From: Peptostreptococcaceae bacterium
GTDB taxonomy: Bacteria; Bacillota; Clostridia; Peptostreptococcales; Filifactoraceae
Assembly (NCBI GenBank): GCA_030528675.1
Contig: JAUMYL010000017.1
Span: forward strand, 6,860-70,859
Direction: 5' to 3'
Length of the DNA: 64,000 nucleotides
The notes under the pieces were generated by a model. That model worked only from the letters and a program-made list of their open reading frames with translations. It was not told the DNA's origin and made no database searches. The translations under genes and the position numbers were made by a program. Of this stretch, positions 14,029 to 60,208 are shown one piece after another. The first letter of the stretch is position 1. Each line of letters starts with the position of its first letter.

Positions 14029-14370
14029 ATGGCAATATACAGAAAACTGGGCATGGTATCTGCACACCGAAAAGCGATGCTGAGAAATATGACGACGGAT
14101 ATCTTAAGACATGGCAAGGTCACGACCACCGAGACCAGAGCCAAAGAGGCCCGCAGAATGGTGGAAAAAATGATCACTCTCGGCAAGAGAGGCGATCTTC
14201 ACGCCAGAAGACAGGCGCTGTCCTATGTGATGGACAAGGCGGTCGTGAAGACGCTCTTCGACGAGATTGCACCGAAATACAGCGAGAGAAACGGCGGATA
14301 CACGAGAATCATGAAACTCGGACCCAGAAAAGGGGACGGGGCGCCGATGGCGATCATCGAATTGGTGTAG
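14029..14370 (+). CDS. rplQ: 50S ribosomal protein L17
   Basis: 113 aa [34 protein letters not shown]... L17 signature. Confidence 0.96.
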
Positions 14371-14379
14371 AATTGAAAG

Positions 14380-14424
14380 AAGGAGCTGTCAGGAAAACTC
14401 AATTTCCGATAGCTCCTTTTTGTC
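14380..14424 (+). terminator. two-tier hairpin plus T-run after rplQ (putative intrinsic terminator of the alpha operon)
   Basis: AAGGAGCT...(inner GGAAA/TTTCC stem)...AGCTCCTT followed by TTTTG. Confidence 0.5.
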
Positions 14425-14532
14425 ATCTTTGTCTCAGGACTTTTGAAGCCCATCCGCTTTTCTCTGCAAGAAATAGAAGACTGGCGAGGCTTTCTCGTTC
14501 ATTCCATGGTAACATACGAGAAGCCTTTATAT

Positions 14533-14660
14533 AAACTCTGTTCGAAATACCATCTGATATCCGACCTGCGTTCAATGAAATGTCGGATGACAGGTCAAGG
14601 GTATATTTTTGTCAGATGACAATTCAGACAGGTAATCGTATGAGATGAGAGGGAGCGGTT
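14533..14660 (+). repeat. dispersed intergenic repeat family A, copy 1
   Basis: AAACTCTGTTCGAAATACCATC...TTCAATGAAATGTCGGATGACAGGTCAAGGGTA...GTCAGATGACAATTCAGACAGG. Near-identical copies at 49602, 63301, and inverted at 15790 and 32884. Confidence 0.8.
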
Positions 14661-14674
14661 GTTGAAACGAGCAA

Positions 14675-14712
14675 GGAGCCCTCCTGTCCGCTGCGGCGGA
14701 CAGGAGGGCTCC
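14675..14712. terminator. 17-bp perfect stem, 4-nt loop hairpin; convergent terminator between the rplQ side and the minus-strand alarmone synthetase gene
   Basis: GGAGCCCTCCTGTCCGC-tgcg-GCGGACAGGAGGGCTCC, 7 nt downstream of the relQ-like stop. Confidence 0.7.
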
Positions 14713-14719
14713 TGCTCCA

Positions 14720-15415
14720 TCAGTAGGAGGCTTCGATGCTTTTTCGGAGTTCGTCCATGCGATGATCTAAAGCGGCGCTGGTTTCGGCGCATTGGAAGAG
14801 CTCTCGCGCCGCTTCCAATGTAAATTCCCGGTCTTTTTTGTAGCGGAGCTGATGCTCGAGGCTGGCCCAAAAATTCATCGCGATTGTCCGCATCTGAATC
14901 TCGGCCTTGACGAGCTTCTTCTGGTTCGAGAGGAAGATCGGCACTTCGACGATCAGATGCAGGCTGCGGTAGCCATTGGGTTTTGGATGTTTTACATAGT
15001 CCCGTTCTTCGATCAGCGTGATATCGTCCTGCTGGAGAAAAGCGGAGCGCAGGGTGTAGATATCCTGAGGGAAAGAGCAGACGACCCGTATGCCGGCGAT
15101 GTCCTGGATGTGTTCTTCGATGGATTCCAGCGTGATGCTCAGCTCTTTTTTCTGCAGTTTGTCGACAATGCTTTCAAGAGATTTCAGTCGGGTCTGAATG
15201 CTGTTGATCGGATTTCGGTCGTGCTCAAGAGAAAACTCTTTGTCCAAGATCTTGAATTTTGTTTCAATCTGCATGATTGCATATTCATAATAAGTCATCA
15301 GGCGGTGTACGGCAAAGGAACTTTGCTGTATCCACGCCATCGCTTCCTTGTTTGCGGACAGTCGTTCGAACAGTTCGTCAAAACTGTAATGCTGCGGCTG
15401 CATATCTCTCATCAT
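14720..15415 (-). CDS. small alarmone synthetase (GTP pyrophosphokinase, RelQ/RelP/YjbM family)
   Basis: 231 aa. Synthetase motifs DIAGIRVV, GYRSLH, EIQMRT. No hydrolase or regulatory domains. RBS AGGAGAAGG. Confidence 0.88.
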   Translation of the reverse strand: MMRDMQPQHYSFDELFERLSANKEAMAWIQQSSFAVHRLMTYYEYAIMQIETKFKILDKEFSLEHDRNPINSIQTRLKSLESIVDKLQKKELSITLESIEEHIQDIAGIRVVCSFPQDIYTLRSAFLQQDDITLIEERDYVKHPKPNGYRSLHLIVEVPIFLSNQKKLVKAEIQMRTIAMNFWASLEHQLRYKKDREFTLEAARELFQCAETSAALDHRMDELRKSIEASY

Positions 15416-15789
15416 AATCCTTCTCCTTTTTCATCAAAACATCGGTATATCCATCATCCAATGAGGTCTTCCTCATAGATATTCGAAGCGGGAATATTTT
15501 TTTCGGGGTCAGGCCATCCGGAACAAAAAGTTTTTGTTCCTCTTCTCCCCTTCGCGGCTGAATTGGATGGAACGGAATCTTTGAAAAAGACCGGCTCGAA
15601 GCTCCATCCTTACTTTCATTATAATATGAGGGAAGAAAGTCGTCCGTTACGGTTTATTTACATATTCCGCCCGAACCTGTATTTATGCCGAAGATCTTTT
15701 GGAATCGCAGAGTTTCAGAGATGAACAGGAAAGGGGAGCAGCTCTCCAGACAGAGCGCTCCTGGCGATTTCTGTCTCTTTTTCTGTGAT

Positions 15790-15920
15790 GAGCCGGATGC
15801 AGAGTATAATACGAATACCGAATCAAAATGCCCTTTGATAAAATATACCTTTGACCTGTCGTCTGAAATTTCATTGAAAGCAGGTCGGAAGATCGGATGG
15901 TATTTCGAACAGAGTTCAGT
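15790..15920 (-). repeat. dispersed intergenic repeat family A, copy 2 (inverted)
   Basis: The reverse complement reads ...AACTCTGTTCGAAATACCATCCGATCTTCCGACCTGCTTTCAATGAAATTTCAGACGACAGGTCAAAGGTATATTTTATCAAAGGGCATTTTGAT... Confidence 0.8.
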
Positions 15921-15921
15921 A

Positions 15922-16965
15922 TTAGAGATCGTCTTCGATGACGGAAGATTTCGCGTAGGCGGAGACTTTTGCCTCAAAGAAGTCGGTTTTGATCGCATTG
16001 GGATCCGCATATTCGTTGACCCAAGCCATTGATTCCGGTTCTTTTTCATAGCCTTCATAGAGGATCTCAAAGCCGAGCCCTCTGCAGCGCAGGTTGCCGA
16101 GATATTTCAGATAGTCTTCGACCATGCCCATCGTCAATCCCTTGATATTGTTTCCGATCACATAGTTCGCCCATTTGATCTCTTCTTCGACGCCCTGTCG
16201 GATCATGCCCCGGAAGATCTCGATGTTCTCCGGGGTGAAGATCTCGGGTTCTTCTTTCTTCAGTTCGAGGATGATCGAGCGGAAGAGCCAGAGGTGGCTG
16301 TTCTCATCCCGGTTGATATAGCGGATCTCCTGAACCGTGCCCGGCACCTTGCCGTTTCTTCCGAGGGAGTAGAAGAACATGAAGCCGGAGTAAAAATAAA
16401 TCCCCTCCAGGATATAGTTGGCGACGGCCGTCTTGACGAGGTTGTATTTTGTGCGGTTGTGGTAGAAGTCGTTGTACTGCTCGCCGATGAACTTGTTTCT
16501 CTCCAGAAGGAAGGGATCGTCTTTCCACTGGTAGAGGATCGCCGTGCGTTCTTCCGGAGAACAGATCGTGTCAAGGATGTAGCCGTAGCTCTGGGAGTGG
16601 ATCGCCTCCTGATAGGCCTGTATCGTCAGGCAGAGATTGACCTCGTTTGCCGTGATGAACTCGCCGATATTCGGAAGGTTCGCGGTCTGGAGGGAATCGA
16701 GGAAGATCAGGAAGGAGAGGATCTTGTCGTAGGCGGTCTTCTCCTCGATATCGAGGTTTCTGTAGTCTTTGATATCCTGGGTGAGGTTGATCTCTTCGGG
16801 GATCCAGAAATTGTTCATCGCATGACGGTACCAGTCGCTGACCCAAGTGTATTTCATATTGTTGAAATCATTGAGGTTGGTGGTGTTTCCGTTGATCATT
16901 CTCCTTTTGGAGAGTTCGATATCTCCGTGCTCATTGAACAGGGCCTTGCGTTTTACTTCGGACAT
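15922..16965 (-). CDS. class I ribonucleotide reductase beta (R2, ferritin-like) subunit
   Basis: 347 aa. Di-metal carboxylate and radical-site helix motifs (...QAYQEAIHSQSYGYI..., ...RDENSHLWLFRSI...). RBS AAGGAGGAAC. Located 13 nt downstream of the alpha subunit gene. Confidence 0.9.
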   Translation of the reverse strand: MSEVKRKALFNEHGDIELSKRRMINGNTTNLNDFNNMKYTWVSDWYRHAMNNFWIPEEINLTQDIKDYRNLDIEEKTAYDKILSFLIFLDSLQTANLPNIGEFITANEVNLCLTIQAYQEAIHSQSYGYILDTICSPEERTAILYQWKDDPFLLERNKFIGEQYNDFYHNRTKYNLVKTAVANYILEGIYFYSGFMFFYSLGRNGKVPGTVQEIRYINRDENSHLWLFRSIILELKKEEPEIFTPENIEIFRGMIRQGVEEEIKWANYVIGNNIKGLTMGMVEDYLKYLGNLRCRGLGFEILYEGYEKEPESMAWVNEYADPNAIKTDFFEAKVSAYAKSSVIEDDL

Positions 16966-16977
16966 GATAGTTCCTCC

Positions 16978-19506
16978 TTAAGCGGTGCAGCTGTCGCACT
17001 CTTCGATTTCCAGGGACTTGCTTCTCACATAGTAGACGGTTTTGACGCCCTCCTCCCAGGCGGAGATATACAGGCGAAGTATGCGGCTCATGCTGAATTC
17101 CGTCGTGATATAGAGGTTGACGGATTGGGACTGGTCGATATGCCGCTGCCGAATCCCCGCCGAACGGATCACCCAGCTTTGATCGATCTCATGGGCGTTT
17201 TCGTAGAGCCAGAAGGTGTCGGCTGTCAGATCGGGAGCGACTCTCGGCACGATCTGCCCTTTTTTCTCTTCGAGAAAATAGCGTTTCATCACAGGGTCGA
17301 TCGCCGCCGTCGTTCCGGCGATGATCGAGGTGGAGCCGGTCGGCGCGACCGCCATCAGATAACCGTTGCGCAGTCCTTTTTCCGCCGTTTCTTTCTGCAG
17401 GGATTCCCACCTCTTGGAGCTGTAGCCCCGCTTGCGGAAATATTCCCCGTTTTGCCAGTCCGATCCTTCAAAATAGGCATAGGGGCCTTTTTCTGCGGCG
17501 AGAGCGGCGCTGGCCCTGATCGTGAAATAGTTGATATCCTCGTAAAGTTCGTCGGCAAAACGCAGATGCTCTTCACTTTGGAAAGAGAGTCCGTTTTTGA
17601 TGAGGCAGTGGTGGTAGCCGCTGGTACCCAGACCGATTGCGCGGTATTTTCGGTTTGTGATCTGCGCATAGGGCAGAGGATAGTAGTTGAGATCAATGAC
17701 GTTGTCAAGGGCGCGCACCACCGTCGATATGACTTCCTCAAGCTCTGCCTTGTCTTTGACCTCGATATTTCCAAGTACGAGAGAGGCGAGGTTGCAGACG
17801 ACGAAATCTCCGGGACGCGTCCTTTCGACGACGGTTTCTTCGCCTTCCGCTTCTCGGACTTCTGTCGTAAGGGAGGCGATAGGGCTCATGTTCTGAGCGA
17901 TCTCGGTGCAGAGATTGGAGGAGTAGATCATGCCCTTGTGGGGATTGGGGTTTCCGCGGTTGATGATATCCCGATTGAAGACGAAGGGGGTTCCGGTCTC
18001 CACCGCGGATTTGATGATCAGGCGCACCATATCCTTGACGCTCATGACGCGCTTGTCCAGAGCGGGTTCGGCGACACAGCGCAGATATCTCTCGGTCCAT
18101 TCTTCTCCATGGAAGTCTTCGAGTCGAAAGCCCATGACCCGCTCGACTTCGTGAGGACAGATCATATACCAGGGGGCGTCGATATTTTCCTTGGCCAGCT
18201 TCCAGAAGTAATCGGGAAAGCAGACCGCAGGAAAGATGTCATGCGCCTTCATGCGGTCGTCTCCGTTGTTGGTGCGCAGCTGGAGAAATTCCGGAACGTC
18301 CTTGTGCCAGATATCGAGGTAGACCGCGCAGGCCCCCTGTCTGACGCCGAGCTGATCGACGGCGACCGCCGTGTCGTTGGCGAGTTTGATCCATCGGATG
18401 ACGCCTCCCGCGACGCCCTTGAATCCTCGGATATCCGAGCCCATCGCCCGCACCTTGCCGAAGTACAGTCCCATCCCGCCTCCGTGTTTCGACACCTGAG
18501 AGAAGTTCGTGATCGAGCGGTAGATCCCGTCCAGACTGTCCGGCACAGTGTCGATAAAACAGGAGGACAGCTGGTGAAAGGGCTTTCTCGCGTTGGACAT
18601 CGTCGGAGTCGCCATCGTCACCTTCAACCGGCTGAGGATATCATAGATTTTTTTGGCCCAGAGGACGCGGTTTTCTTTTTCCGGGATCGAAAGATGCATT
18701 GCGATACCCATGAACATCTCCTGCACGGATTCGAGGAGTCTGCCCTCTCCGTCCTTGATCAGGTAGCGCTTGAGGACAAGGTCGAGGCCGCTGTAGTTGA
18801 ACAGATGGTTTCGGCTTTCGTCCAGATAGTTTTCAAGCTCGGCGATATCGGTATCGGAATAGTTTTCCAGCATATACTCTCCGTAGAGCCCCGCTTTCGT
18901 CAGATAAGAGATCTTTTCAAAGAAAGAGCGGATCTCAAGCCGGTTCATCTCGAGGCGGATCCTGTGCCCGATCTGCAGAGAGAGGAAGCGAGCCGCAATA
19001 AATTCCCATTTCGGCGCTTCCTTGCTCGTCAGTTCGCTTGCAGCCTTGATCAGAAGAGAGAGGTATTCTTCTTCATTCATCCCTTCCCTTGCAAAAGAAG
19101 AAAATTTTGTAAAGAGGAAGGAGAGATTGTAAGCGTCTTCGGTAAACCTCCCCTGAATCTCTCTCATTTCGTCAAGAATCTTCTCCTCGCTGAAATAATG
19201 AGCAAAATTTTCGATGGTCTTGCGCATGGTGTGATGACTGGCGCGATACAGGATATAGGATTTGACGACGCTGTAATACTTGTGTTCGATCAGCGTGATT
19301 TCGACAAAATCCTGTACTTCCTCGACAGAGACGATATGTCCGCTCGGGAACTGGCTGCGGACTTTTTCTTCCACCTCCGCCGCCATTAAGGCAATCGTCT
19401 TGTGGTCGATGGGCAGTCCTACACTGATAAAGGCTTTTTCCATTGCGGCTTCGATCTTGCGGATATCGAAAGCTCGTTCTTCTCCGCTGCGTTTGATGAT
19501 CTTCAC
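16978..19506 (-). CDS. class I ribonucleotide reductase alpha subunit with N-terminal ATP-cone
   Basis: 842 aa. ATP-cone MKIIKRSGEERAFDIRKIEAAMEKAF. Catalytic core motifs (NLCTEI, C-terminal CxxC tail ...EIEECDSCTA). Confidence 0.92.
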   Translation of the reverse strand: MKIIKRSGEERAFDIRKIEAAMEKAFISVGLPIDHKTIALMAAEVEEKVRSQFPSGHIVSVEEVQDFVEITLIEHKYYSVVKSYILYRASHHTMRKTIENFAHYFSEEKILDEMREIQGRFTEDAYNLSFLFTKFSSFAREGMNEEEYLSLLIKAASELTSKEAPKWEFIAARFLSLQIGHRIRLEMNRLEIRSFFEKISYLTKAGLYGEYMLENYSDTDIAELENYLDESRNHLFNYSGLDLVLKRYLIKDGEGRLLESVQEMFMGIAMHLSIPEKENRVLWAKKIYDILSRLKVTMATPTMSNARKPFHQLSSCFIDTVPDSLDGIYRSITNFSQVSKHGGGMGLYFGKVRAMGSDIRGFKGVAGGVIRWIKLANDTAVAVDQLGVRQGACAVYLDIWHKDVPEFLQLRTNNGDDRMKAHDIFPAVCFPDYFWKLAKENIDAPWYMICPHEVERVMGFRLEDFHGEEWTERYLRCVAEPALDKRVMSVKDMVRLIIKSAVETGTPFVFNRDIINRGNPNPHKGMIYSSNLCTEIAQNMSPIASLTTEVREAEGEETVVERTRPGDFVVCNLASLVLGNIEVKDKAELEEVISTVVRALDNVIDLNYYPLPYAQITNRKYRAIGLGTSGYHHCLIKNGLSFQSEEHLRFADELYEDINYFTIRASAALAAEKGPYAYFEGSDWQNGEYFRKRGYSSKRWESLQKETAEKGLRNGYLMAVAPTGSTSIIAGTTAAIDPVMKRYFLEEKKGQIVPRVAPDLTADTFWLYENAHEIDQSWVIRSAGIRQRHIDQSQSVNLYITTEFSMSRILRLYISAWEEGVKTVYYVRSKSLEIEECDSCTA

Positions 19507-24440: not shown

Positions 24441-24490
24441 AAAAATACGGAAGATTCAAGGGGCTGACTCAAAAGCCCTGAAAAAGTGAA

Positions 24491-24541
24491 AAAATGGCTG
24501 AACTCAACAAATGAAGCGTTGAAGTTCAGCCATTTTAATTT
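24491..24541. terminator. bidirectional intrinsic terminator between livF (+) and the lipoprotein gene (-)
   Basis: AAATGGCTGAA-ctcaacaaatgaagcgttgaag-TTCAGCCATTT followed by TAATTTT. A-run on the opposite side. Confidence 0.75.
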
Positions 24542-24586
24542 TCTGATTTCTCTCAAAAACTTACCTTTGGGTTAACCCCTTTCATA

Positions 24587-25543
24587 TCAGTAATTTTCCT
24601 TCCATCCCTGCCAGCGTTGGAAGCTGCCTTCAGGAAAACTGTATTCCGGAGTGAGAAGAGGAAAGCTCAGTTCAGAGAGGTAGTACCAGGGGTCTTCCTC
24701 ATGGAGGGGATTTTTGAGCAGATGAAACTCCTGCGCCGGCATATAGCTTTGCCCGAGCAGGAAGGCGGTATCTCCGGAAGAGTTTTTCGCGATATCGCAG
24801 ACCATGACGCAGTGGCCGGGACTGCCGCCTTGGATGAAGAGATCGCCGGCCCGGATATCGGAAAGAGCGGCGGGAGCGGATTCCTTTTCAAGGGAGAGGG
24901 TGCCGGCGTAGCACATGATCAGGCGGAAGTAGCGGCGGAAGGTCTCGTAAGAATCGTCAAAGGCGGCGGTTTTGCTCCAGCACGTCTCATTTCCGGAAAT
25001 CTGCAGACGCTTGCCCTCACGGTAGGAAGGATAATCCATAAAGAAGCCGTTGGTCAGGTGAAAGGCGATCTCCTCCTGTCTGCCCCGCGACCAGAGGTAT
25101 TCGCAGTAGAGGCGCATGACGGAATCGGCGCACTGCTGCAGGTCTTCGTCTCCGACGTCGAGATCGAAGACGGCGATATGCACATTCTGTCTGTTCTTCT
25201 TCCTGCCGTTGTAGAGCAAGACCGGGCTTTGGTCCGGCTTCAGTTTCCTGTTGCGAAGAAAGAAGAGCAGGGAGGCCTCATCAGCTTCGGGGCGGAAATA
25301 GCCCTCAGGTTCGCGGATGCGCGTCAGCAGAGATTCTCCGGTCGGATTGATAAAGGAGGAGATCTCCTTTTTTGTTTTTTCGTTTTCTTCTGATTTTCCC
25401 TCTGCTTCTTCCATCCCGGCATTTTTTTCGCCCGGGTTTTCCGTCCCGGCTCTCTCTTCTTCCGGAGCGGGTCCCTTCGTCTCCGCCGGTGGATGGCAGG
25501 AGACAAGGAAGAGCAGGAGGAGGAAAAGGACGTATTTTTTCAT
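24587..25543 (-). CDS. hypothetical secreted lipoprotein (acidic low-complexity N-terminal linker, conserved C-terminal domain of unknown function)
   Basis: 318 aa. Lipobox MKKYVLFLLLLFLVSC. Globular C-terminal 250 aa with Cys pairs. No recognisable catalytic motif. Coding-like composition, versus an R/V/G-rich antisense ORF on the + strand. Confidence 0.6.
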   Translation of the reverse strand: MKKYVLFLLLLFLVSCHPPAETKGPAPEEERAGTENPGEKNAGMEEAEGKSEENEKTKKEISSFINPTGESLLTRIREPEGYFRPEADEASLLFFLRNRKLKPDQSPVLLYNGRKKNRQNVHIAVFDLDVGDEDLQQCADSVMRLYCEYLWSRGRQEEIAFHLTNGFFMDYPSYREGKRLQISGNETCWSKTAAFDDSYETFRRYFRLIMCYAGTLSLEKESAPAALSDIRAGDLFIQGGSPGHCVMVCDIAKNSSGDTAFLLGQSYMPAQEFHLLKNPLHEEDPWYYLSELSFPLLTPEYSFPEGSFQRWQGWKENY

Positions 25544-28310: not shown

Positions 28311-28469
28311 ATGGGTGGACTGAATTTACCTACGCTCATCGTCGGTTTGATCTTTGCCGCAATTATTTTCTTTGCCGCAAGAAAGAGTTTTCAAGACGCC
28401 AAGGCCGGAAAATGCGCAAGCTGCAACTGCGGCTGTGAAGAAAAGGCGAAGAAGGACGAGAAGCGATAA
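28311..28469 (+). CDS. FeoB-associated Cys-rich membrane mini-protein
   Basis: 52 aa MGGLNLPTLIVGLIFAAIIFFAARKSFQDAKAGKCASCNCGCEEKAKKDEKR. Single TM plus CxxCxCxC. Positioned directly after feoB as in the named family. Confidence 0.65.
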   Translation: MGGLNLPTLIVGLIFAAIIFFAARKSFQDAKAGKCASCNCGCEEKAKKDEKR

Positions 28470-28548
28470 GAGCTGCTGAGAGAAAGGCTGCCCTAAGCGA
28501 GTATGCGGGCGGTCTTTTTTTATGGGAGAGGAAAAGGGAGGGAAGAAG

Positions 28549-29883
28549 ATGAAGATCAAGACGCCTCAGGCCGTGCATTTTTTGATAGAGAGACTGGAAA
28601 GAGAAGGATGTGAGGCCTATGCAGTCGGCGGCTGTATTCGGGACAGGCTGCTGGGCAGAGAGCCGAAGGACTGGGACGTCTGTACCTCGGCCCACCCTTC
28701 GCGGATCCTTGAGATCTTTTCGGATCTTCCGGTCATTCCGACCGGGATCAAACACGGGACTCTGACTGTGATCGTCGGGGGTCAGCCCTATGAGGTGACG
28801 ACTTTTCGCAAAGACGGGGATTATCAGGACGGAAGGCGTCCCGCGTCTGTGGATTTTGTCGATGCTCTGGAAGAAGATCTCGCGCGCCGGGATTTTCGGA
28901 TCAATGCGATGGCCTATAACGAGAAAAGAGGGCTGCAGGATCCTTTTGGCGGCGGAGAGGATATCGAAAACAAACGCCTGCGCACCGTGGGAAGTCCGGC
29001 GCTCCGCTTTTCTGAGGACTATCTGCGGATGATGCGGGCCGTCCGCTTTGCGGCGGTGCTGGACTTCGAGCCGGAGGAGGAGATGATGGGGCAGATCCGA
29101 AAGCTGGCGCCGAAGATTCGAAGGATCAGCGCCGAGAGGATCCGGCAGGAGCTCCTCGGGATGCTGGACAGCCCGCACAGCCTCCGGGCGATCCGTCTTC
29201 TTGAGGAGTCCGGTCTGCTCCGACAGATCCTTCCCGAGCTTTCCGCCTGTATCGGTGTGGAGCAGAATCACCCCCTGCACGGGAAGGACGTCTATGAGCA
29301 TACGCTGGAAGTGATGGAAAATCTTGGAGAAGCGCCGGTTCTTCTCAAACTTGCCGCCCTCTTCCACGATATCGGAAAACCGAAGACAAAGTCTTCTGAT
29401 GAGAGAGGCGTCGATCGTTTTTACGCCCATGAGCAGGTCGGCGCGCAGATGAGCCGGGAGATCCTGAGCCGCCTGCGCTTTTCCAATGACGAGATCGAGC
29501 GGGTCGCTTCCCTCGTCCTTCACCACGGCTACCGTCCTGAAAGCAGGAGAGCGGCAGTGAAACGCTTTATCCGCAAAGTCGGGAAGGATCGGCTGGACTT
29601 TCTTCTCAAGCTGCAGAGCGCCGATATCCGGGCCCACTGCGGCAGGGAGGATGCTTTGAGGCAACAGGAAGGCCTCCGAGCAATGATCGAAGAGATCCTT
29701 TCCGCGGAAGAGCCGACGGCGATGGGCGATCTTGCCCTGAGCGGGAAGGACCTTCTTGCGATGGGCTATGTTCAGGGGAAGGAGATCGGCCGTATCAAGG
29801 AGAGTCTGATGCAGCATGTTTTAGAGCATCCGGAAGATAATGAGAAAGAGATCCTCAGAAGGATTGTCCGGGAGAGGTTTTAG
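28549..29883 (+). CDS. cca: CCA-adding tRNA nucleotidyltransferase (Pol-beta head + HD domain)
   Basis: Head-domain motif GGCIRDRLLGREPKDWDV...RDFRINAMAY. HD domain ...LFHDIGKP... Internal ATG preferred over the track start at 28522. Confidence 0.88.
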   Translation: MKIKTPQAVHFLIERLEREGCEAYAVGGCIRDRLLGREPKDWDVCTSAHPSRILEIFSDLPVIPTGIKHGTLTVIVGGQPYEVTTFRKDGDYQDGRRPASVDFVDALEEDLARRDFRINAMAYNEKRGLQDPFGGGEDIENKRLRTVGSPALRFSEDYLRMMRAVRFAAVLDFEPEEEMMGQIRKLAPKIRRISAERIRQELLGMLDSPHSLRAIRLLEESGLLRQILPELSACIGVEQNHPLHGKDVYEHTLEVMENLGEAPVLLKLAALFHDIGKPKTKSSDERGVDRFYAHEQVGAQMSREILSRLRFSNDEIERVASLVLHHGYRPESRRAAVKRFIRKVGKDRLDFLLKLQSADIRAHCGREDALRQQEGLRAMIEEILSAEEPTAMGDLALSGKDLLAMGYVQGKEIGRIKESLMQHVLEHPEDNEKEILRRIVRERF

Positions 29884-32810: not shown

Positions 32811-32883
32811 GGGAGAATTTCCTCTCTCAGACGGTAAGCAAAGAGGCTGACGGAAATATTTCCGGCCAGCCTCTTTGCGTTGT

Positions 32884-33060
32884 GTACGAATACCTGATCA
32901 AAAGGTCCTTCGATGAAATGCGACCCTGAGCTTTCCTCTGAAATTTCATTGAAAACGGGCCGAGATATCAGCAGGTATTTCGAATAGGGTTTGTCGTAAA
33001 TCTCATTGAAATGACGCTTGCAGGAAACGATCTCTTATCAGATGACAATTCAAACAGGCG
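32884..33060. repeat. mosaic copy of repeat family A (segments in both orientations) in the promoter region of the ABC-2 operon
   Basis: Contains TCTGAAATTTCATTGAAAACGG...GGTATTTCGAATAGGG (inverted core). A second TCATTGAAATGAC. A direct-orientation TCAGATGACAATTCAAACAGG piece. Confidence 0.75.
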
Positions 33061-33144
33061 GCGGCAGTAAATCTCAATTTTGGAAGAAGAGGATCGGAAA
33101 CCGTCTTTGGACAGCCTCCCGGAAACCGCTGCTCTCTGCGGAAA

Positions 33145-34719
33145 TTACGGGGTTCCCGTTCCCATGAACGAGATCTTCATGAAGCCGATAGCGCCTTTCA
33201 TATTGTCAACGGCGTGACCGACGCCGTTGGCAATCGCGTCTCTTTCGTCTTCAGGGAGCAGATCTTTTTTATCCTGCGCGTCTTGGAGCAGAGCGTCCAT
33301 CGCTTCGCCGCCGAGGACTTTTTCCATCAGGTTGTCTGCGATCTCTTCGATCATCTCTGTCGGAAGCTGAGGCTGGTTTGCGAGGGCGTAGAGATCCACC
33401 GCGTCGGAGGAAGCTTCGATGATATTCGGCTTGACATCTCCTCCGAAGGCATTGTAGGTGATTGTCTGCTTCATGATGATCGGATTCATCCTGTAGGTGA
33501 TCTCATACTGACGCATACGATGCTGCTTGTCGATGGAGAGAATGATGTCGTAGGAGACTTCGCTCTGAGATCCCATCAGGGCTCCAAGCCGGGAAGAAGT
33601 ATCCCGCAGCTGCGTGATCGCCTCGTCGAGCTTGCTTTCGTAATTTGTTTCCAGCTCGTTTATCATCTCTTTCGTCGTCGAGGTGAACTCTTCTTCCGTT
33701 GCGCCGAATTTTTCATAGTCTTTGTCCGCCACCGCTTTGTCGACGATTTTATTCATGCGGTCGAGAAGCAGGGTTTTGACATTTTCATCGGTCTTGGCTT
33801 TTTCGAGAATCACTGCGTAGAGTTCGTAGATCTCCTCGATTCCGCCGTTGAATTTATAGCCGTAACCGTCGATGAGGCTCTCTTTCCCGCCTTCATATAC
33901 GGTGATCTTATGCCCCTTCGGAAGAGGCTCGATCTTGTCCTTGAGGAATTCACGAACCGCCTCTTCGTAGGATTTGGCATTGCTTTCGACTTTTTTCGAC
34001 AGCTCGTCTTCTTCGGTGAGAATCGCGATATAGCCGGGGATATCAATATCGTTGAGGTTGAATCCGGCTTCCTGCTCCATAAGCTGTCCAAGGTCAAGGT
34101 AAAGAGGCTTGGAGTAGAGGTCGTCGGATTGGAACACGAACTTCCAAGGAGACATGCCGCCCTGGAAACGGATGAAGTTTTTGTCCGCATACTGAAGCCT
34201 TGCATCGAAGTCTGCGGCAAAGAGCTTGTCTTCGCTGTAAATCGTATTGCTGTCGGCACGAAGGCGGAAATTTCCGGCGAGGGCGTTGATATATTTTGCA
34301 AGAGCCGCGGTGTCGCCGGTCATCATTTCCAGTTCTGCCAGTGCCTCGGGGCTGCTCTCATCGATCCGGCCGTCCATGATGAGAGTCGAACTGAAGGCCT
34401 TTTCTCTGGAGGTGTTCATCGCCGCAAGCATCACATGACCGATCGGATCCTTGGCGATCTGCGATCCCATGAGCTTCGGCGCAAGGAAGGCGATCAGCGC
34501 TACAGCGATGACGACAGCGCCGATCAGCAGGGGCAGGTTCTTTTTCGGTTTTGCCTGCGGAGGGATCTGCGGTGCAAAATCAGCGGCAGGACTCTCCGAA
34601 TGTATGTTTTCGACAGGGGGAGAATCCGAGGGGGGGTGGGGATTCCCTGAGATATCTGTGGGAACTGCGGGGTTCATAGGAGTTTCCTGCGGGTTCAAAT
34701 TATTATTTTCGTTTGTCAT
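33145..34719 (-). CDS. hypothetical single-pass membrane protein with Pro-rich cytoplasmic N-terminus and large extracytoplasmic domain
   Basis: About 524 aa from the ATG with AAGGAG RBS (the track start is 27 nt further upstream). TM LPLLIGAVVIAVALIAFLAP. Coding-like composition versus the antisense ORF 33214-34650. Confidence 0.6.
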   Translation of the reverse strand: MTNENNNLNPQETPMNPAVPTDISGNPHPPSDSPPVENIHSESPAADFAPQIPPQAKPKKNLPLLIGAVVIAVALIAFLAPKLMGSQIAKDPIGHVMLAAMNTSREKAFSSTLIMDGRIDESSPEALAELEMMTGDTAALAKYINALAGNFRLRADSNTIYSEDKLFAADFDARLQYADKNFIRFQGGMSPWKFVFQSDDLYSKPLYLDLGQLMEQEAGFNLNDIDIPGYIAILTEEDELSKKVESNAKSYEEAVREFLKDKIEPLPKGHKITVYEGGKESLIDGYGYKFNGGIEEIYELYAVILEKAKTDENVKTLLLDRMNKIVDKAVADKDYEKFGATEEEFTSTTKEMINELETNYESKLDEAITQLRDTSSRLGALMGSQSEVSYDIILSIDKQHRMRQYEITYRMNPIIMKQTITYNAFGGDVKPNIIEASSDAVDLYALANQPQLPTEMIEEIADNLMEKVLGGEAMDALLQDAQDKKDLLPEDERDAIANGVGHAVDNMKGAIGFMKISFMGTGTP

Positions 34720-34962
34720 GATGATCTCCTTTCTGTCCGGCATCAAAGACCGGTATTCAAAATCTTGCAGCAGCCGAGCTATGAAGGGCTTCTTTTCGGC
34801 TTTCGAACCTCTGTTTCTCTATGGCGGCAAAGCTGTGCTTAAACTTATTATACCATAGTTTCACTGCTTGCATGATAAAATATCAAAAAAATGCTCATGA
34901 AAAGGCTCTTTTCGTGTATAATAAAGAATGGAAGACGACTACAGACGAAGAGGCGGTATTTT

Positions 34963-38222: not shown

Positions 38223-42212
<3,990 letters not shown>

Positions 42213-42216
<4 letters not shown>

Positions 42217-43241: not shown

Positions 43242-43268
43242 CGGGAAAAGGGCGCAGAGCTGACTGCT

Positions 43269-43365
43269 CGGAAATTTCAGCGGCTTGCTCTTCTCGATTT
43301 TTTTTGCGAAAAGTCCCCGTTTTCATCCCTGAGCCTTCGAAACTTATTTCGCCTCTGTTTTCACA
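43269..43365 (+). repeat. dispersed repeat family C copy (related to 60080-60170)
   Basis: CGGAAATTTCAGCGGCTTGCTCTTCTCGATTTTTTTTGCGAAAAGTCCCCG versus CTGAAATTTCATCGGCTCGCTCCTCTCGATTTTTTCACGAAAGTTCCTC. Confidence 0.7.
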
Positions 43366-49458: not shown

Positions 49459-49521
49459 GAGAAGCAGACGCCATGTATATCTGTAAAGGCTTGACGGAAG
49501 AGTGAGTTTTTGAGAGAAATT

Positions 49522-49576
49522 AAAACGGCTGAATTTCAACAGTATATTTGTTGAGTTCAGCCGTTTTTATTTTTTC
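49522..49576 (+). terminator. intrinsic terminator after the peptide ABC operon
   Basis: AAAACGGCTGAA-tttcaacagtatatttgttgag-TTCAGCCGTTTT plus TATTTTTTC. Sequence related to the hairpin at 24491-24541. Confidence 0.8.
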
Positions 49577-49601
49577 AGGACTTTTGATACTACACTCTGT
49601 A

Positions 49602-49735
49602 CGAAATACCATCCGATAGTCCGACCAGTGTTCAATGAAATTTCAGATGACAGATCAGGAGTACATTTTATCGGAGGGAATTTTGATCAGGTATCCGTAT
49701 GAGACGCTTCCTTGCGGAGATGAGAGCGATTATTA
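49602..49735 (+). repeat. dispersed intergenic repeat family A, copy 4
   Basis: ACACTCTGTACGAAATACCATCCGATAGTCCGACCAGTGTTCAATGAAATTTCAGATGACAGATCAGGAGTACATTTTATCGGAGGGAATTTTGATCAGGTATCCGTATGAGA... Confidence 0.85.
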
Positions 49736-55898: not shown

Positions 55899-55965
55899 GA
55901 CTTCGAAAATCCTTCGACGGCGCGGAATCGCCTTCGGAAAAATCGGATTTGCGAAGATTCTGCAG
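55899..55965 (+). repeat. dispersed repeat family B copy (related to 59950-60015)
   Basis: ACTTCGAAAATCCTTCGACGGCGCGGAATCGCCTTCGGAAAAATCGGATTTGCG versus ACTTCAAAAATCATTCGACGGCGCGGACTTGCTTTCGGAAAAATCGGACTCGCT. Confidence 0.75.
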
Positions 55966-57646: not shown

Positions 57647-58777
57647 ATGCTGATTTTTAGCGAATTGATCAAAAAATTTGACAAAATCAGAGAGTATATG
57701 AGAGATTTTTATGTCTACGGCTTTCGAACGCGGGAAAACTTCGGAAGCCGAAAGAGCCTGCGCAGCTATGACAACGAGAGGCGGAGAATCGAAAGCTATC
57801 TGGAGGACTTCATGTCCTTTCGCCAAAATGACAGGGGAAAGATCGTCTTTTTGAGCGCAGACAGCAGGGATATCTCCGCCAATCCCTTTTACAGAGCTTT
57901 TAAGGCCAAAAGTTTCACCAAAAAAGACATCAGCCTGCACTTCATTCTGCTGGACATTTTGCAGGAGGGTATCAGACTGTCTTTATCCGAGATTATGGAG
58001 AAGATCGGGGAAGAGTATCTGAGTTTTTTTGAATTTCCGATGGAGATCGACGCGGCGACGGTGCGCAACAAGCTGCGGGAATACGAAGGAGAAGGCCTCT
58101 TCGTCTCGGAAAAAGTCGGAAAAACTCTGCTCTACCGAAGGAGAGAAGAGGAATCGGAGAGTCCGCCCTCTATTGACGCGATCCGTTTTTTCAGCGAGGC
58201 GGATCCCGCCGGCGTCGTCGGCAGTTTTCTTCTGGACCGATATGAGGAGAAACGCCCTGTAAATCCGCCCTTTTCCTACAAACACCACTATATTATGCAC
58301 GCTCTCGACAGCGAGATCTTCTGCCTTGCGGCGGAGGCGATTGCCGCGGAGGAGACTGTGGAGATCCTTCGCCGCGTCCGCAGCGGCAGGGAAGAAAAGG
58401 AAACCGTCTTTCCGATCAAGATCCTCCTCAGCGTCCAAAGTGGAAGGAGTTATCTTTCGGCATACCATTTTCGAGACAGACATATTTTCAACTACCGTCT
58501 CGATCATATTCTCTCTCTGCGTCGGACGGGAGAGCGCCGCGCCGCCCTCGGAATGCGGGAGAGGTGGAAGGAGCTGATGGACGAGGCCTGGGGAGTGTCC
58601 TTCGGAAAGAAGGGGCCGCCGGAGAGCGTCGAGATGATCCTTCTGATCCCGCCGCAGGAGCGTTTTGTGCTGGAAAGGATCCTTCGAGAGGGAAGACATG
58701 GGCGTGTCGAAGAGCTGGGAGAGGGAAGATACCGCTATGCGGTAAAGGTCAGGGACTCTCGGGAGATGCTCCCCTAG
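57647..58777 (+). CDS. HTH-WYL-domain transcriptional regulator; reading frame interrupted by in-frame TAG inside the C-terminal WCX-like segment (homology continues in-frame to 58954)
   Basis: wHTH in the middle region. WYL core SYLSAYHFRDRHIFNYRLDHI (WYLxA...FRLDRI pattern). After the TAG at 58775-58777 the same frame reads LRTFLGRIEQIRFSDEKVEKL, which aligns with the WCX motif LLSFGPMIEVIEPESVREKI of the paralog downstream. Confidence 0.6.
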   Translation: MLIFSELIKKFDKIREYMRDFYVYGFRTRENFGSRKSLRSYDNERRRIESYLEDFMSFRQNDRGKIVFLSADSRDISANPFYRAFKAKSFTKKDISLHFILLDILQEGIRLSLSEIMEKIGEEYLSFFEFPMEIDAATVRNKLREYEGEGLFVSEKVGKTLLYRRREEESESPPSIDAIRFFSEADPAGVVGSFLLDRYEEKRPVNPPFSYKHHYIMHALDSEIFCLAAEAIAAEETVEILRRVRSGREEKETVFPIKILLSVQSGRSYLSAYHFRDRHIFNYRLDHILSLRRTGERRAALGMRERWKELMDEAWGVSFGKKGPPESVEMILLIPPQERFVLERILREGRHGRVEELGEGRYRYAVKVRDSREMLP

Positions 58778-58943
58778 CTGAGAACCTTTCTCGGGAGGAT
58801 CGAGCAGATCCGTTTCAGCGATGAGAAGGTCGAAAAACTCTTTTACGCCGATCTGGAAAATATGAGAAGAAAATATGAAGAGCCGCAGTCCCTCCGTCCG
58901 CGGCGCAAAAGGGCGTCTTCCGAGATAGAAAGGGGAGAAGAAG

Positions 58944-59912
58944 TTGATCTTTCATGAGATCTACGGTCTGTATTACAGGAGTGTCGAGAAGATCCTAAGG
59001 GCGATTCTCGAGCGAAGGAGATCCGGCGGACCGCCTCTGTCGGGCAAGGAAGCGAGGAAGCTCATTGATGAGACCGCTTTCTCGGAAAGCAGCATGGCGA
59101 TCCTTTCGGCGATTGAACAGGAAGAGTGGCAGATGATCCGAAAGGATATGAGCAGTCCGATACGCCATTTGCCCTCGCGGCCCCGGACGCTTTTGGAAAG
59201 ACGCTGGCTGCAGGCGATTGCGGGAGATGAAAAAATGAGACTTTTCGGGGAAGTGCCTCTTGTTTCAGAGGAAGATCCTCCGCTGTATCGCAGAGAAGAC
59301 CTCTTTCGAATCGACCGTCCCTCCGACGGTGATGACTTTTCCGATCCGGGGTATATTGAAGTGTTTCAGGCGTTGTTGCGCGCGGTCAAGGAGGAAAAAC
59401 TCGTTCAGATTGCCTTTCTTTCGGCGAAAGGGTTTCGTAAAAAAGGGCTGTTCTTTCCCGGGAAGCTGGAATACTCGGCAAAAGATGAAAAGTTTCGCCT
59501 GATCGCAAAGAGATCTTCTGCCTATGGCGTGGTCTCTGATATCATCGTGACGATCAATCTTGCGCGGATCCTCTCTGTCACCGTCATGGAAGAGATCACG
59601 CCGGAGTTTTTGATCGGAGACTTCCGCTTTGAGGAGCCGAAAGAAAGCGTCCTGCTGCGCTTGTATGACCGCAGAAACGCTTTAGAGCGTGCCTTGCTTC
59701 ATTTTGCGGACTTCGAAAAAGAGACCGAGCAGATAGAGGGACTTCTCTATGAAATGAAACTGCGTTTTGCAAGCAAGGACGAGTCCGAGATCCTGATCCG
59801 CCTGCTCTCCTTCGGGCCGATGATTGAAGTGATCGAGCCCGAGAGTGTTCGGGAGAAAATCCGACAGAGACTGCAGAGGCAGGCGGAACTTTGGGGAAGA
59901 AGAAGGTGTTGA
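58944..59912 (+). CDS. WYL/WCX-domain regulator paralog
   Basis: 322 aa. TTG start after AAAGGGGAGAAG. C-terminal ...LIRLLSFGPMIEVIEPESVREKIRQRL is a typical WCX segment. Confidence 0.55.
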   Translation: MIFHEIYGLYYRSVEKILRAILERRRSGGPPLSGKEARKLIDETAFSESSMAILSAIEQEEWQMIRKDMSSPIRHLPSRPRTLLERRWLQAIAGDEKMRLFGEVPLVSEEDPPLYRREDLFRIDRPSDGDDFSDPGYIEVFQALLRAVKEEKLVQIAFLSAKGFRKKGLFFPGKLEYSAKDEKFRLIAKRSSAYGVVSDIIVTINLARILSVTVMEEITPEFLIGDFRFEEPKESVLLRLYDRRNALERALLHFADFEKETEQIEGLLYEMKLRFASKDESEILIRLLSFGPMIEVIEPESVREKIRQRLQRQAELWGRRRC

Positions 59913-59937
59913 AGTTGCGAATTCAAGTTCGCAACTT
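59912..59937. repeat. perfect 10-bp-stem hairpin AAGTTGCGAA-ttcaag-TTCGCAACTT (copy 1; spans the stop codon of the WYL paralog)
   Basis: Identical hairpin repeated at 60177-60202. Confidence 0.85.
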
Positions 59938-59949
59938 CACATTGCAGAC

Positions 59950-60015
59950 AAACTTCAAAAATCATTCGACGGCGCGGACTTGCTTTCGGAAAAATCGGAC
60001 TCGCTCACCGGAAAT
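59950..60015 (+). repeat. dispersed repeat family B copy
   Basis: See 55899-55965. Confidence 0.75.
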
Positions 60016-60079
60016 TTCGAACGAGCTCCAAGCGGCGTCCTGCCGCTTTCGCTCTAAAATCAGCGTCCTGCTGATTTTT

Positions 60080-60170
60080 CTGAAATTTCATCGGCTCGCT
60101 CCTCTCGATTTTTTCACGAAAGTTCCTCATCTTCGTCTCATGAATTTTGAAGTTTGTCCGCTTTGTCTTC
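60080..60170 (+). repeat. dispersed repeat family C copy (contains a family-A core fragment CTGAAATTTCATCGG)
   Basis: See 43269-43365. Confidence 0.7.
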
Positions 60171-60176
60171 AGTCTG

Positions 60177-60208
60177 AAGTTGCGAATTCAAGTTCGCAAC
60201 TTTTTTTT
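60177..60208 (+). terminator. strong intrinsic terminator (hairpin copy 2 plus T8)
   Basis: AAGTTGCGAA-ttcaag-TTCGCAACTT followed by TTTTTTTT. Confidence 0.8.

Follow-up and report, generated by a model that had tools for sequence, protein, structure and literature searches.

A dispersed palindromic repeat of the intergenic DNA of an uncultured Peptostreptococcaceae lineage, probably a miniature mobile element

A repeat, termed family A, is represented by five full copies of about 110-130 nt each and by a truncated sixth copy in a 64-kb window (the whole stretch of DNA that was analysed). The copies are found on both strands and in unrelated intergenic contexts, they have a palindromic architecture, and they are subject to insertion/deletion polymorphism between closely related lineages. 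Family A is most likely an ordinary small mobile element rather than a novel type of gene or RNA. At a probability of roughly 60%, it belongs to the palindromic miniature mobile elements of the MITE/ERIC type, being non-autonomous and restricted to this lineage.

Results

Copies of family A in the window

An nhmmer profile made from the five copies of family A was run against the 64-kb window. All five copies were recovered with E values of 5e-32 to 6e-36, and no other strong match was present in the window. Copy 1, which carries a variant right half, is located at 14530-14645 on the plus strand (E = 4.9e-32). Copies 2 and 3 are both on the minus strand, at 15807-15923 (E = 2.4e-35) and 32882-32996 (E = 3.1e-33) respectively. 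Copy 4 (49587-49717, plus strand; E = 5.6e-36) is the most complete one and has both ends (ATACTACACTCTGTACGAAATACC ... GGTATCCGTATGAGAC), and copy 5 is located at 63298-63403 on the plus strand (E = 8.6e-34). The truncated sixth copy is of the copy-1 type and consists of the centre and right half only (about 33002-33069, plus strand; E = 0.039). It abuts copy 3 head-to-head, and its alignment to the right half of copy 1 has a local score of 55, compared to a mean of 19 (sd 3.7) and a maximum of 33 for shuffled sequences. When dinucleotide shuffles were used to obtain the expected numbers, three matches to the 29-nt core of family A were observed against none expected, and five matches to the 18-nt left end against 0.05. 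Over the whole element, pairwise identity among the five copies is 68-84%. Two other segments, 15670-15722 (minus strand) and 14449-14531 (plus strand), appeared by eye to be degenerate copies; their scores were within the range of the shuffles and they were rejected.

The five copies lie at or very near the places, and in the orientations, in which the initial annotation had put them on inspection of the sequence, and its statement that all of them fall between genes agrees with Pfam scans and gene tables. The copy that it described as a mosaic at 32884-33060 is composed of the full minus-strand copy 3 (32882-32996) followed by the truncated plus-strand copy. The identity of 85-95% that it gave for the family is an overestimate, the measured pairwise values being those stated above.

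Short-read contigs of the same strain behave differently from copy to copy. One of them (L227) ends inside copy 2, at 15891, and another (L001) ends at 63236, 65 nt before copy 5. Copies 1, 3 and 4 are spanned intact by other same-strain contigs. The contig ends at copy 2 and near copy 5 may be due to heterogeneity of the strain or to additional, nearly identical copies elsewhere in the genome.

Architecture of the element

The consensus of family A is ATAAACTCTGTTCGAAATACCATCCGATATTCCGACCTGTnTTCAATGAAATTTCAGATGACAGnTCAGGGGTACATTTTATCAAAGGGCATTTTGATCAGGTATTCGTATGAGA. Each copy is an imperfect palindrome with a perfect 10-bp palindrome, TGAAATTTCA, at its centre, and 11 central bases (TTCAATGAAAT) are identical in all the five copies. 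The terminal inverted repeats are imperfect and about 16 nt long, the left one, (A)CTCTGTWCGAAATACC, pairing with the right one, GGTATYCGTATGAGA. In the consensus fold these repeats constitute the outer helix (helix 1), which has 13 pairs and 86% of its cells paired. Either strand can be folded end-to-end into a long interrupted hairpin. Standard pairs occupy 87% of the cells of the consensus fold, as compared to 21-50% when the 3' partners were slid by one to three columns. The inverted-repeat architecture is thus real.

Conservation along the element is asymmetric, with 34 of 61 columns invariant in the left half and 21 of 61 in the right half. In all five copies the left end shows little or no variation. 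Both ends are complete in copies 1 and 4 only; copies 2, 3 and 5 have a right end that is truncated or diverged. At copy 5 the divergence of the right end sets in at 63404 with the start of TCTTATAACAATCGCACGAAGAATAAGG, and in place of the last 10 nt or so of the element there is the first unit of a 28-nt direct repeat that is unrelated to it. The GC content of the copies is 38-44%, versus 52% for the window. The left end also resembles the inverted repeats of the IS6 family (GGTTCTGTTGCAAAGTT), a likeness to which no weight was given.

Filled and empty sites in related lineages

RtcB of the window has 100% identity to a protein from a Peptostreptococcaceae MAG. Among named relatives, the closest LigA proteins, with about 62% identity, belong to Acetoanaerobium and other Peptostreptococcaceae. 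Two Logan samples, SRR24915846 and SRR24915849, contain contigs that match the window at 100% identity. A sister lineage, found in several other samples, has 92-96% nucleotide identity to the window, and its proteins are mostly 96-100% identical. The samples of this sister lineage include SRR33398665, SRR30067288/293/297, SRR13247030-38 and SRR33674912. The comparison of filled and empty sites was carried out for copies 1-4; the sister contig at rtcB (L246) ends 2 nt past that gene, before the site of copy 5. Copies 1-4 are absent from the orthologous sites of the sister lineage (all four of the sites that could be compared).

Copies 3 and 4 are simple insertions in otherwise collinear DNA. 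At the copy 4 site the window reads GGACTTTTG(ATACTACACTCTGT...CCGTATGAGAC)GCTTCC, where the parentheses enclose an insert of about 130 nt, and sister contig L243 reads GGACTTTTG-CTTCA-GCTTCT, with flanks that are 93-94% identical. Copy 3 and the truncated copy together (32882-33069, 188 nt) correspond to 3 nt in sister contig L241, the flanks again being 93-94% identical, and in two genus-level relatives the genes which flank this site are just 8-16 nt apart. No target-site duplication was found at these two clean junctions. At both of them, 3-5 nt of the sister sequence are replaced by the insert.

Copies 1 and 2 are associated with larger replacements. Copy 1 is contained in a window-specific segment of 236 nt (14467-14702), in place of which the sister lineage has 717 nt that code for a small secreted protein. 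A second sister variant (L235) re-aligns to the window from 14641, at about the element end of copy 1. In the sister lineage a small secreted-protein gene is located between rplQ and relQ and occurs in two length variants (L228, 10714-11430; L235, 1503-2121). The right junction at copy 1 has a microhomology, TGAGAT, in common with the end of the element.

Copy 2 is at the edge of a block of 3,837 nt (15670-19506) comprising copy 2, nrdB and nrdA, in place of which sister contigs (L228 and L230-L237) have 27 nt. DNA homology to the nrdAB loci of other taxa (L148) extends as far as 15922, ending exactly with the stop codon of nrdB, and copy 2 is therefore not part of the transferred nrdAB genes. 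NrdB has 93% protein identity, and 78% identity at the DNA level, to that of oral Peptostreptococcaceae/'Filifactor' MAGs. A search of nrdB neighbours in GTDB genomes revealed nrdAB to be a widely transferred gene pair. Sequence comparison suggests a horizontal acquisition of the nrdAB block.

Gene context, orientation and terminators

All family A copies are intergenic and flanked by real genes, as seen from Pfam scans and gene tables. Copy 1 is located 160 nt past the stop codon of rplQ and after the rplQ terminator hairpin, between the convergent genes rplQ and relQ. Copy 2 has its beginning at the TAA stop codon of nrdB or overlaps this codon, lies upstream of relQ and is co-oriented with both genes. 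Copy 3 is present between a gene for 533 aa (33145-34746, minus strand) and the terminator hairpin of that gene, upstream of an ABC-2 exporter operon. Copy 4 immediately follows the oppA terminator, with an amidase gene about 290 nt downstream of it, and copy 5 is 143 nt past the rtcB stop codon. At all five sites the orientation of the element is the same as that of the upstream gene (p of about 0.06), a bias which is only suggestive because n = 5. At four of the five, both the neighbouring genes run in the same direction.

A terminator hairpin precedes copies 1 and 4 and follows copy 3, copy 2 begins at the nrdB stop, and no obvious hairpin could be read from the sequence between rtcB and copy 5. 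The scan for consensus terminators and promoters covered 14300-16000, that is, copies 1 and 2, and nothing was found inside these elements; the placement relative to terminators at copies 3-5 was read from the sequence. The family A hairpin is not followed by a T-run. Because the T-run is missing and the placement relative to real terminators is inconsistent, a terminator role for the element is unsupported. An extended -10-like sequence, TGATAAAAT, was noted by eye on the antisense strand and is intact in only two of the five copies. Transposase or recombinase genes were searched for by Pfam scans and in gene tables, and none was found in the roughly 71 kb that the 64-kb window and its 6.9 kb of upstream DNA make up.

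Coding and structured-RNA readings

Four of the five copies share an open reading frame (..RPxFNEISDDRSGVHFIKGHFDQVFV*), which is frame-shifted in copy 1. Neither a start codon nor a ribosome-binding site was found for it. The variable columns are distributed over codon positions 1/2/3 as 7/7/13, which is not significant (chi-square of about 2.7, 2 df). When a profile of the translation was compared with 1.84 billion representative proteins, the sole match was a translated eukaryotic tandem satellite of 1,821 aa, the score of which is the sum of 20 weak repeat matches. The coding reading was rejected on the frameshift of copy 1, the non-significant codon bias and the satellite artefact being the only match among proteins.

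In Rfam 15, family A had no match either at the gathering score or at E <= 5, and the only match of the window at E <= 5 was a chance snoRNA match outside family A. Folding-energy z-scores lay between -2.2 and +1.1 for the sense strand, with similar values for the antisense strand. The covariation term of RNAalifold was unfavourable (+1.7 and +1.2 kcal/mol), and the compensatory changes were within the range of the shuffles, 72-221 of 500 of which reached the observed values. A structured-RNA reading was thus given no support by Rfam, MFE z-scores, RNAalifold or pair counting, and there was no sign of selection on structure.

Searches for family A elsewhere

No copy of family A was found in 82 kb of DNA of the sister lineage and genus-level relatives. 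The exact core pattern had no match in 185,579 GTDB species genomes, blastn against plasmids and phages gave no family A match, and the repeat is absent from the nrdB-neighbour loci of GTDB genomes. A two-anchor pattern returned at least 120 matches in metagenome contigs and 25 in viral contigs. These were rejected as members of the family and attributed to chance, the best profile E value among the viral-contig and metagenome matches listed being 0.024. An autonomous partner having family A ends was not found in plasmids, phages or GTDB species genomes, and the literature search for MITEs in this bacterial family yielded nothing relevant.

Other repeats and variable genes in the window

A second repeat, unrelated to family A, is a terminator-like hairpin module that occurs as an inverted pair at 24490-24587 and 49479-49568, with 74-87% identity, and is also present in the sister lineage. 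Its hairpin is followed by a tail, TCAGGACTTTTGA (14434-14446, 24469-24481 on the minus strand and 49575-49587), which also follows the rplQ terminator. The 13-mer tail alone is not significant, with four matches against 2.2 expected. A third set of repeats is built around a large composite palindrome at 59912-60202, with arms AAGTTGCGAATTCAAGTTCGCAACTT at 59912 and 60177. Its internal units recur at 43259-43303 and 55900-55952, and the same-strain Logan contig L001 starts inside it, at 60150.

Downstream of copy 5, about 850 nt are without a convincing ORF. The 28-nt direct repeat at this place (63404-63431 and 63468-63495) has 93% identity and a spacing of 64. A perfect 32-nt direct repeat, GATATAATAGAATCATACTGAAATGTAAATTT, is found at 63847-63878 and 63915-63946 with a spacing of 68, and looks like a duplicated promoter/operator.

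Some genes of the window differ from the sister lineage more than others. The products of the DUF4846 gene (24587-25543) and of the gene for the CCA-adding enzyme (28363-29817) have 87% and 83% protein identity to the sister, compared to 96-100% for their neighbours. An Eco57I/TaqI_C-type restriction-modification gene (40294-42216) encodes 640 aa versus 611 aa in the sister, with an alignment gap at 41161-41274. These three may be further spots of local recombination or hypervariability. Two genes for WYL/WCX-domain proteins (57647-59912 and 61953-63155) are located upstream of the Band_7 gene and rtcB, a layout that may place the RNA-repair ligase under the control of the WYL regulators. The context of rtcB is different in a genus-level relative (L244).

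Discussion

The MITE-like reading of family A follows from its small size, its non-coding nature, its terminal inverted repeats, its AT-richness, the occurrence of copies on both strands, the head-to-head compound of copy 3 with the truncated copy, and presence or absence between lineages. Family A copies would insert into AT-rich intergenic DNA near gene ends, moved in trans by an enzyme that is encoded elsewhere in the genome or has since been lost. The copies differ from each other by 16-32% and the lineages by only about 5-8%, so that more than one copy, already diverged, would have acted as a source. Since divergence between copies is greater than that between lineages, a simple recent burst from one master copy is excluded. 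Once inserted, the copies would be largely neutral passengers, transcribed within 3' UTRs or leaders, and they could mark or promote sites of gene gain and loss at the strain level.

Several observations speak against the MITE reading, among them the missing target-site duplication, the absence of transposase and recombinase genes from about 71 kb of DNA and of an autonomous partner from the collections searched, and the divergence between copies described above. The centre and the left half are the most conserved parts of family A, whereas in a typical MITE the termini are, and a sense orientation at five of five sites is not expected of purely selfish DNA. The element has several attributes of MITEs, being small (MITEs are below 300-500 bp) and non-coding with terminal inverted repeats and dispersed, insertion-polymorphic copies; the target-site duplication, a further such attribute, is missing at copy 4 and at copy 3 with the truncated copy.

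Among known systems, the Correia/NEMIS elements of Neisseria, RUP of Streptococcus pneumoniae and bcr1 of the Bacillus cereus group are, like family A, small (100-160 bp), non-coding and multi-copy. They share with it the intergenic location in both orientations, terminal inverted repeats, a long hairpin, insertion polymorphism between close relatives, a base composition AT-richer than that of the host and a nested or abutting arrangement of some copies. The target-site duplication is TA for Correia and RUP and TTTAT for bcr1, with a cognate IS family where one is known. In contrast to these elements, family A shows no duplication at either of its two clean junctions, nor was a partner IS found. 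Its sequence has no similarity to anything in the collections searched.

ERIC/IRU of Enterobacteriaceae and YPAL of Yersinia resemble family A in being imperfectly palindromic, about 125 bp long and strongly conserved in a central inverted repeat. They too occupy transcribed intergenic sites close to the ends of genes, vary in presence at orthologous positions from one close relative to the next, and lack a recognised transposase and a clear target duplication. ERIC/IRU, the hosts of which are enterobacteria or Vibrio, belong to another phylum and have no sequence relationship to family A, so the two are comparable by architecture only. ERIC is moreover conserved across many genera, and family A was found only in one uncultured Peptostreptococcaceae lineage. 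To our knowledge, ERIC is not an Rfam family. REP/BIME sequences with their RAYT (TnpA-REP) are also intergenic palindromes that are often near gene 3' ends and have no target duplication. REPs are single hairpins of 20-40 bp which are usually clustered and usually beside a RAYT gene, whereas family A is about 115 nt long and solitary except for one head-to-head pair, with no Y1/RAYT gene in 71 kb.

The MITE/ERIC-type reading leaves four features unexplained, namely the absence of target duplication, the conserved centre, the sense bias and the position of two copies at replacements, and these give room to other explanations. One of them derives family A from IS200/IS605 in the manner of PATEs, which would be moved in single-stranded form by a hairpin-recognising Y1 TnpA without target duplication. 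Like PATEs, family A is small, rich in hairpins within its imperfect palindromes, without target-site duplication at the two clean junctions, and strand-biased, all five copies being co-oriented with the upstream gene. Such an origin is nevertheless unlikely. PATE ends, as those of IS200/IS605, are not mutual inverted repeats, whereas the ends of family A are. PATEs insert 3' of a fixed short motif, and no conserved tetra- or pentanucleotide is present 5' of the left end of family A, where the flanks are TTTTG, TCTA, TTTA and similar. In addition, the orientation of the copies tracks local transcription and not one direction of replication, as both strands are used within 64 kb, and tnpA and tnpB are absent from the 71 kb examined.

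The orientation could also be accounted for if family A were a functional cis-acting RNA, such as a 3'-UTR or leader element for stability or processing or a small RNA, kept in sense for its action in the transcript. Under this explanation, which we consider rather improbable, the five-of-five sense orientation, the same direction of both neighbours at four of five sites and the greater conservation of the left half and central loop would have a function behind them. Copies 2 and 3 are predicted to be transcribed as parts of 3' UTRs, because they are located between a stop codon and the next terminator, and copy 4 may belong to a leader of the amidase gene. Against it stand the null result with Rfam, the unremarkable folding energies, the unfavourable covariation term and compensatory changes not above those of shuffles. 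The same genes are without the element in the sister and genus-level relatives, and it is thus dispensable there.

Likewise improbable is a mobile palindromic module that has no target duplication, moves by an unrecognised mechanism, is kept in sense through a role in RNA or protein binding and participates directly in capturing or exchanging gene cassettes. Such cassettes would be exemplified by the nrdAB block of 3.8 kb, which has its end exactly at copy 2, and by the gene that was replaced at copy 1.

A dispersed site for a DNA-binding protein, either a regulator or a nucleoid-associated protein, recognising the centre TTCAATGAAATnTC with its palindrome, is very doubtful. The 11 central bases that are identical in five of five copies, despite an overall identity of 68-84%, agree with it, as does a perfect 10-bp palindrome, which is typical for dimeric regulators; this palindrome only partly resembles the CodY and CcpA consensus sequences. 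However, more than 100 nt are conserved, far more than an operator, the neighbouring genes have no common function (end of the ribosomal operon/relQ, nrdAB, ABC-2 exporter, oppA/amidase, rtcB), and the sites are missing in the sister lineage.

A relic of a duplicated gene fragment or a local segmental duplication, spread or lost by homologous recombination alone, is highly unlikely: four of five copies keep one frame open, with variable columns distributed 7/7/13 over codon positions 1/2/3, and copies 1 and 2 are at replacement junctions instead of clean insertions, but the codon bias is not significant, copy 1 is frame-shifted, there is no start codon or ribosome-binding site and no protein match among 1.84 billion representatives bar the satellite artefact, the inserts at copies 3 and 4 have the length of the element, and segmental duplication is ruled out because the flanks of different copies are unlike beyond the element.

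The proposed miniature mobile element differs in some respects from the one of the initial annotation. Its assignment to MITE/REP-type elements is borne out as to kind, in that family A is MITE-like (small, non-coding, dispersed, palindromic and absent from four of four sites in the sister), and not as to size, which is not that of a REP. It had put the copies often next to terminators, but the placement of these is inconsistent: they precede copies 1 and 4 and follow copy 3, copy 2 is at the nrdB stop, and no obvious hairpin is present between rtcB and copy 5. The suggested role as a terminator or regulatory module did not hold up, given the missing T-run, this inconsistent placement and the lack of an Rfam or covariation signal. 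The idea that the copies are recombination substrates gains some support because copies 1 and 2 are at the edges of larger strain-specific replacements. Of the marks of mobility that it had proposed to look for, imperfect terminal inverted repeats of about 16 nt are present, target-site duplications are absent at the two clean junctions, and no cognate transposase, of IS200/IS605 or other type, is encoded in the 64-kb window and the 6.9 kb upstream.

Family A accounts for several spurious ORFs and for intergenic regions of unusual length. It may also add to the breaks in short-read assemblies, a link that is only suggested. A new mechanistic question would arise only if the sense bias and the absence of target duplication hold genome-wide. 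Within the lineage, family A marks differences from the closest relatives, namely the loss of a small secreted-protein gene, the gain of nrdAB and two simple insertions. As it marks these points of difference, it could serve as a strain marker and as a tracer of recent genome change.
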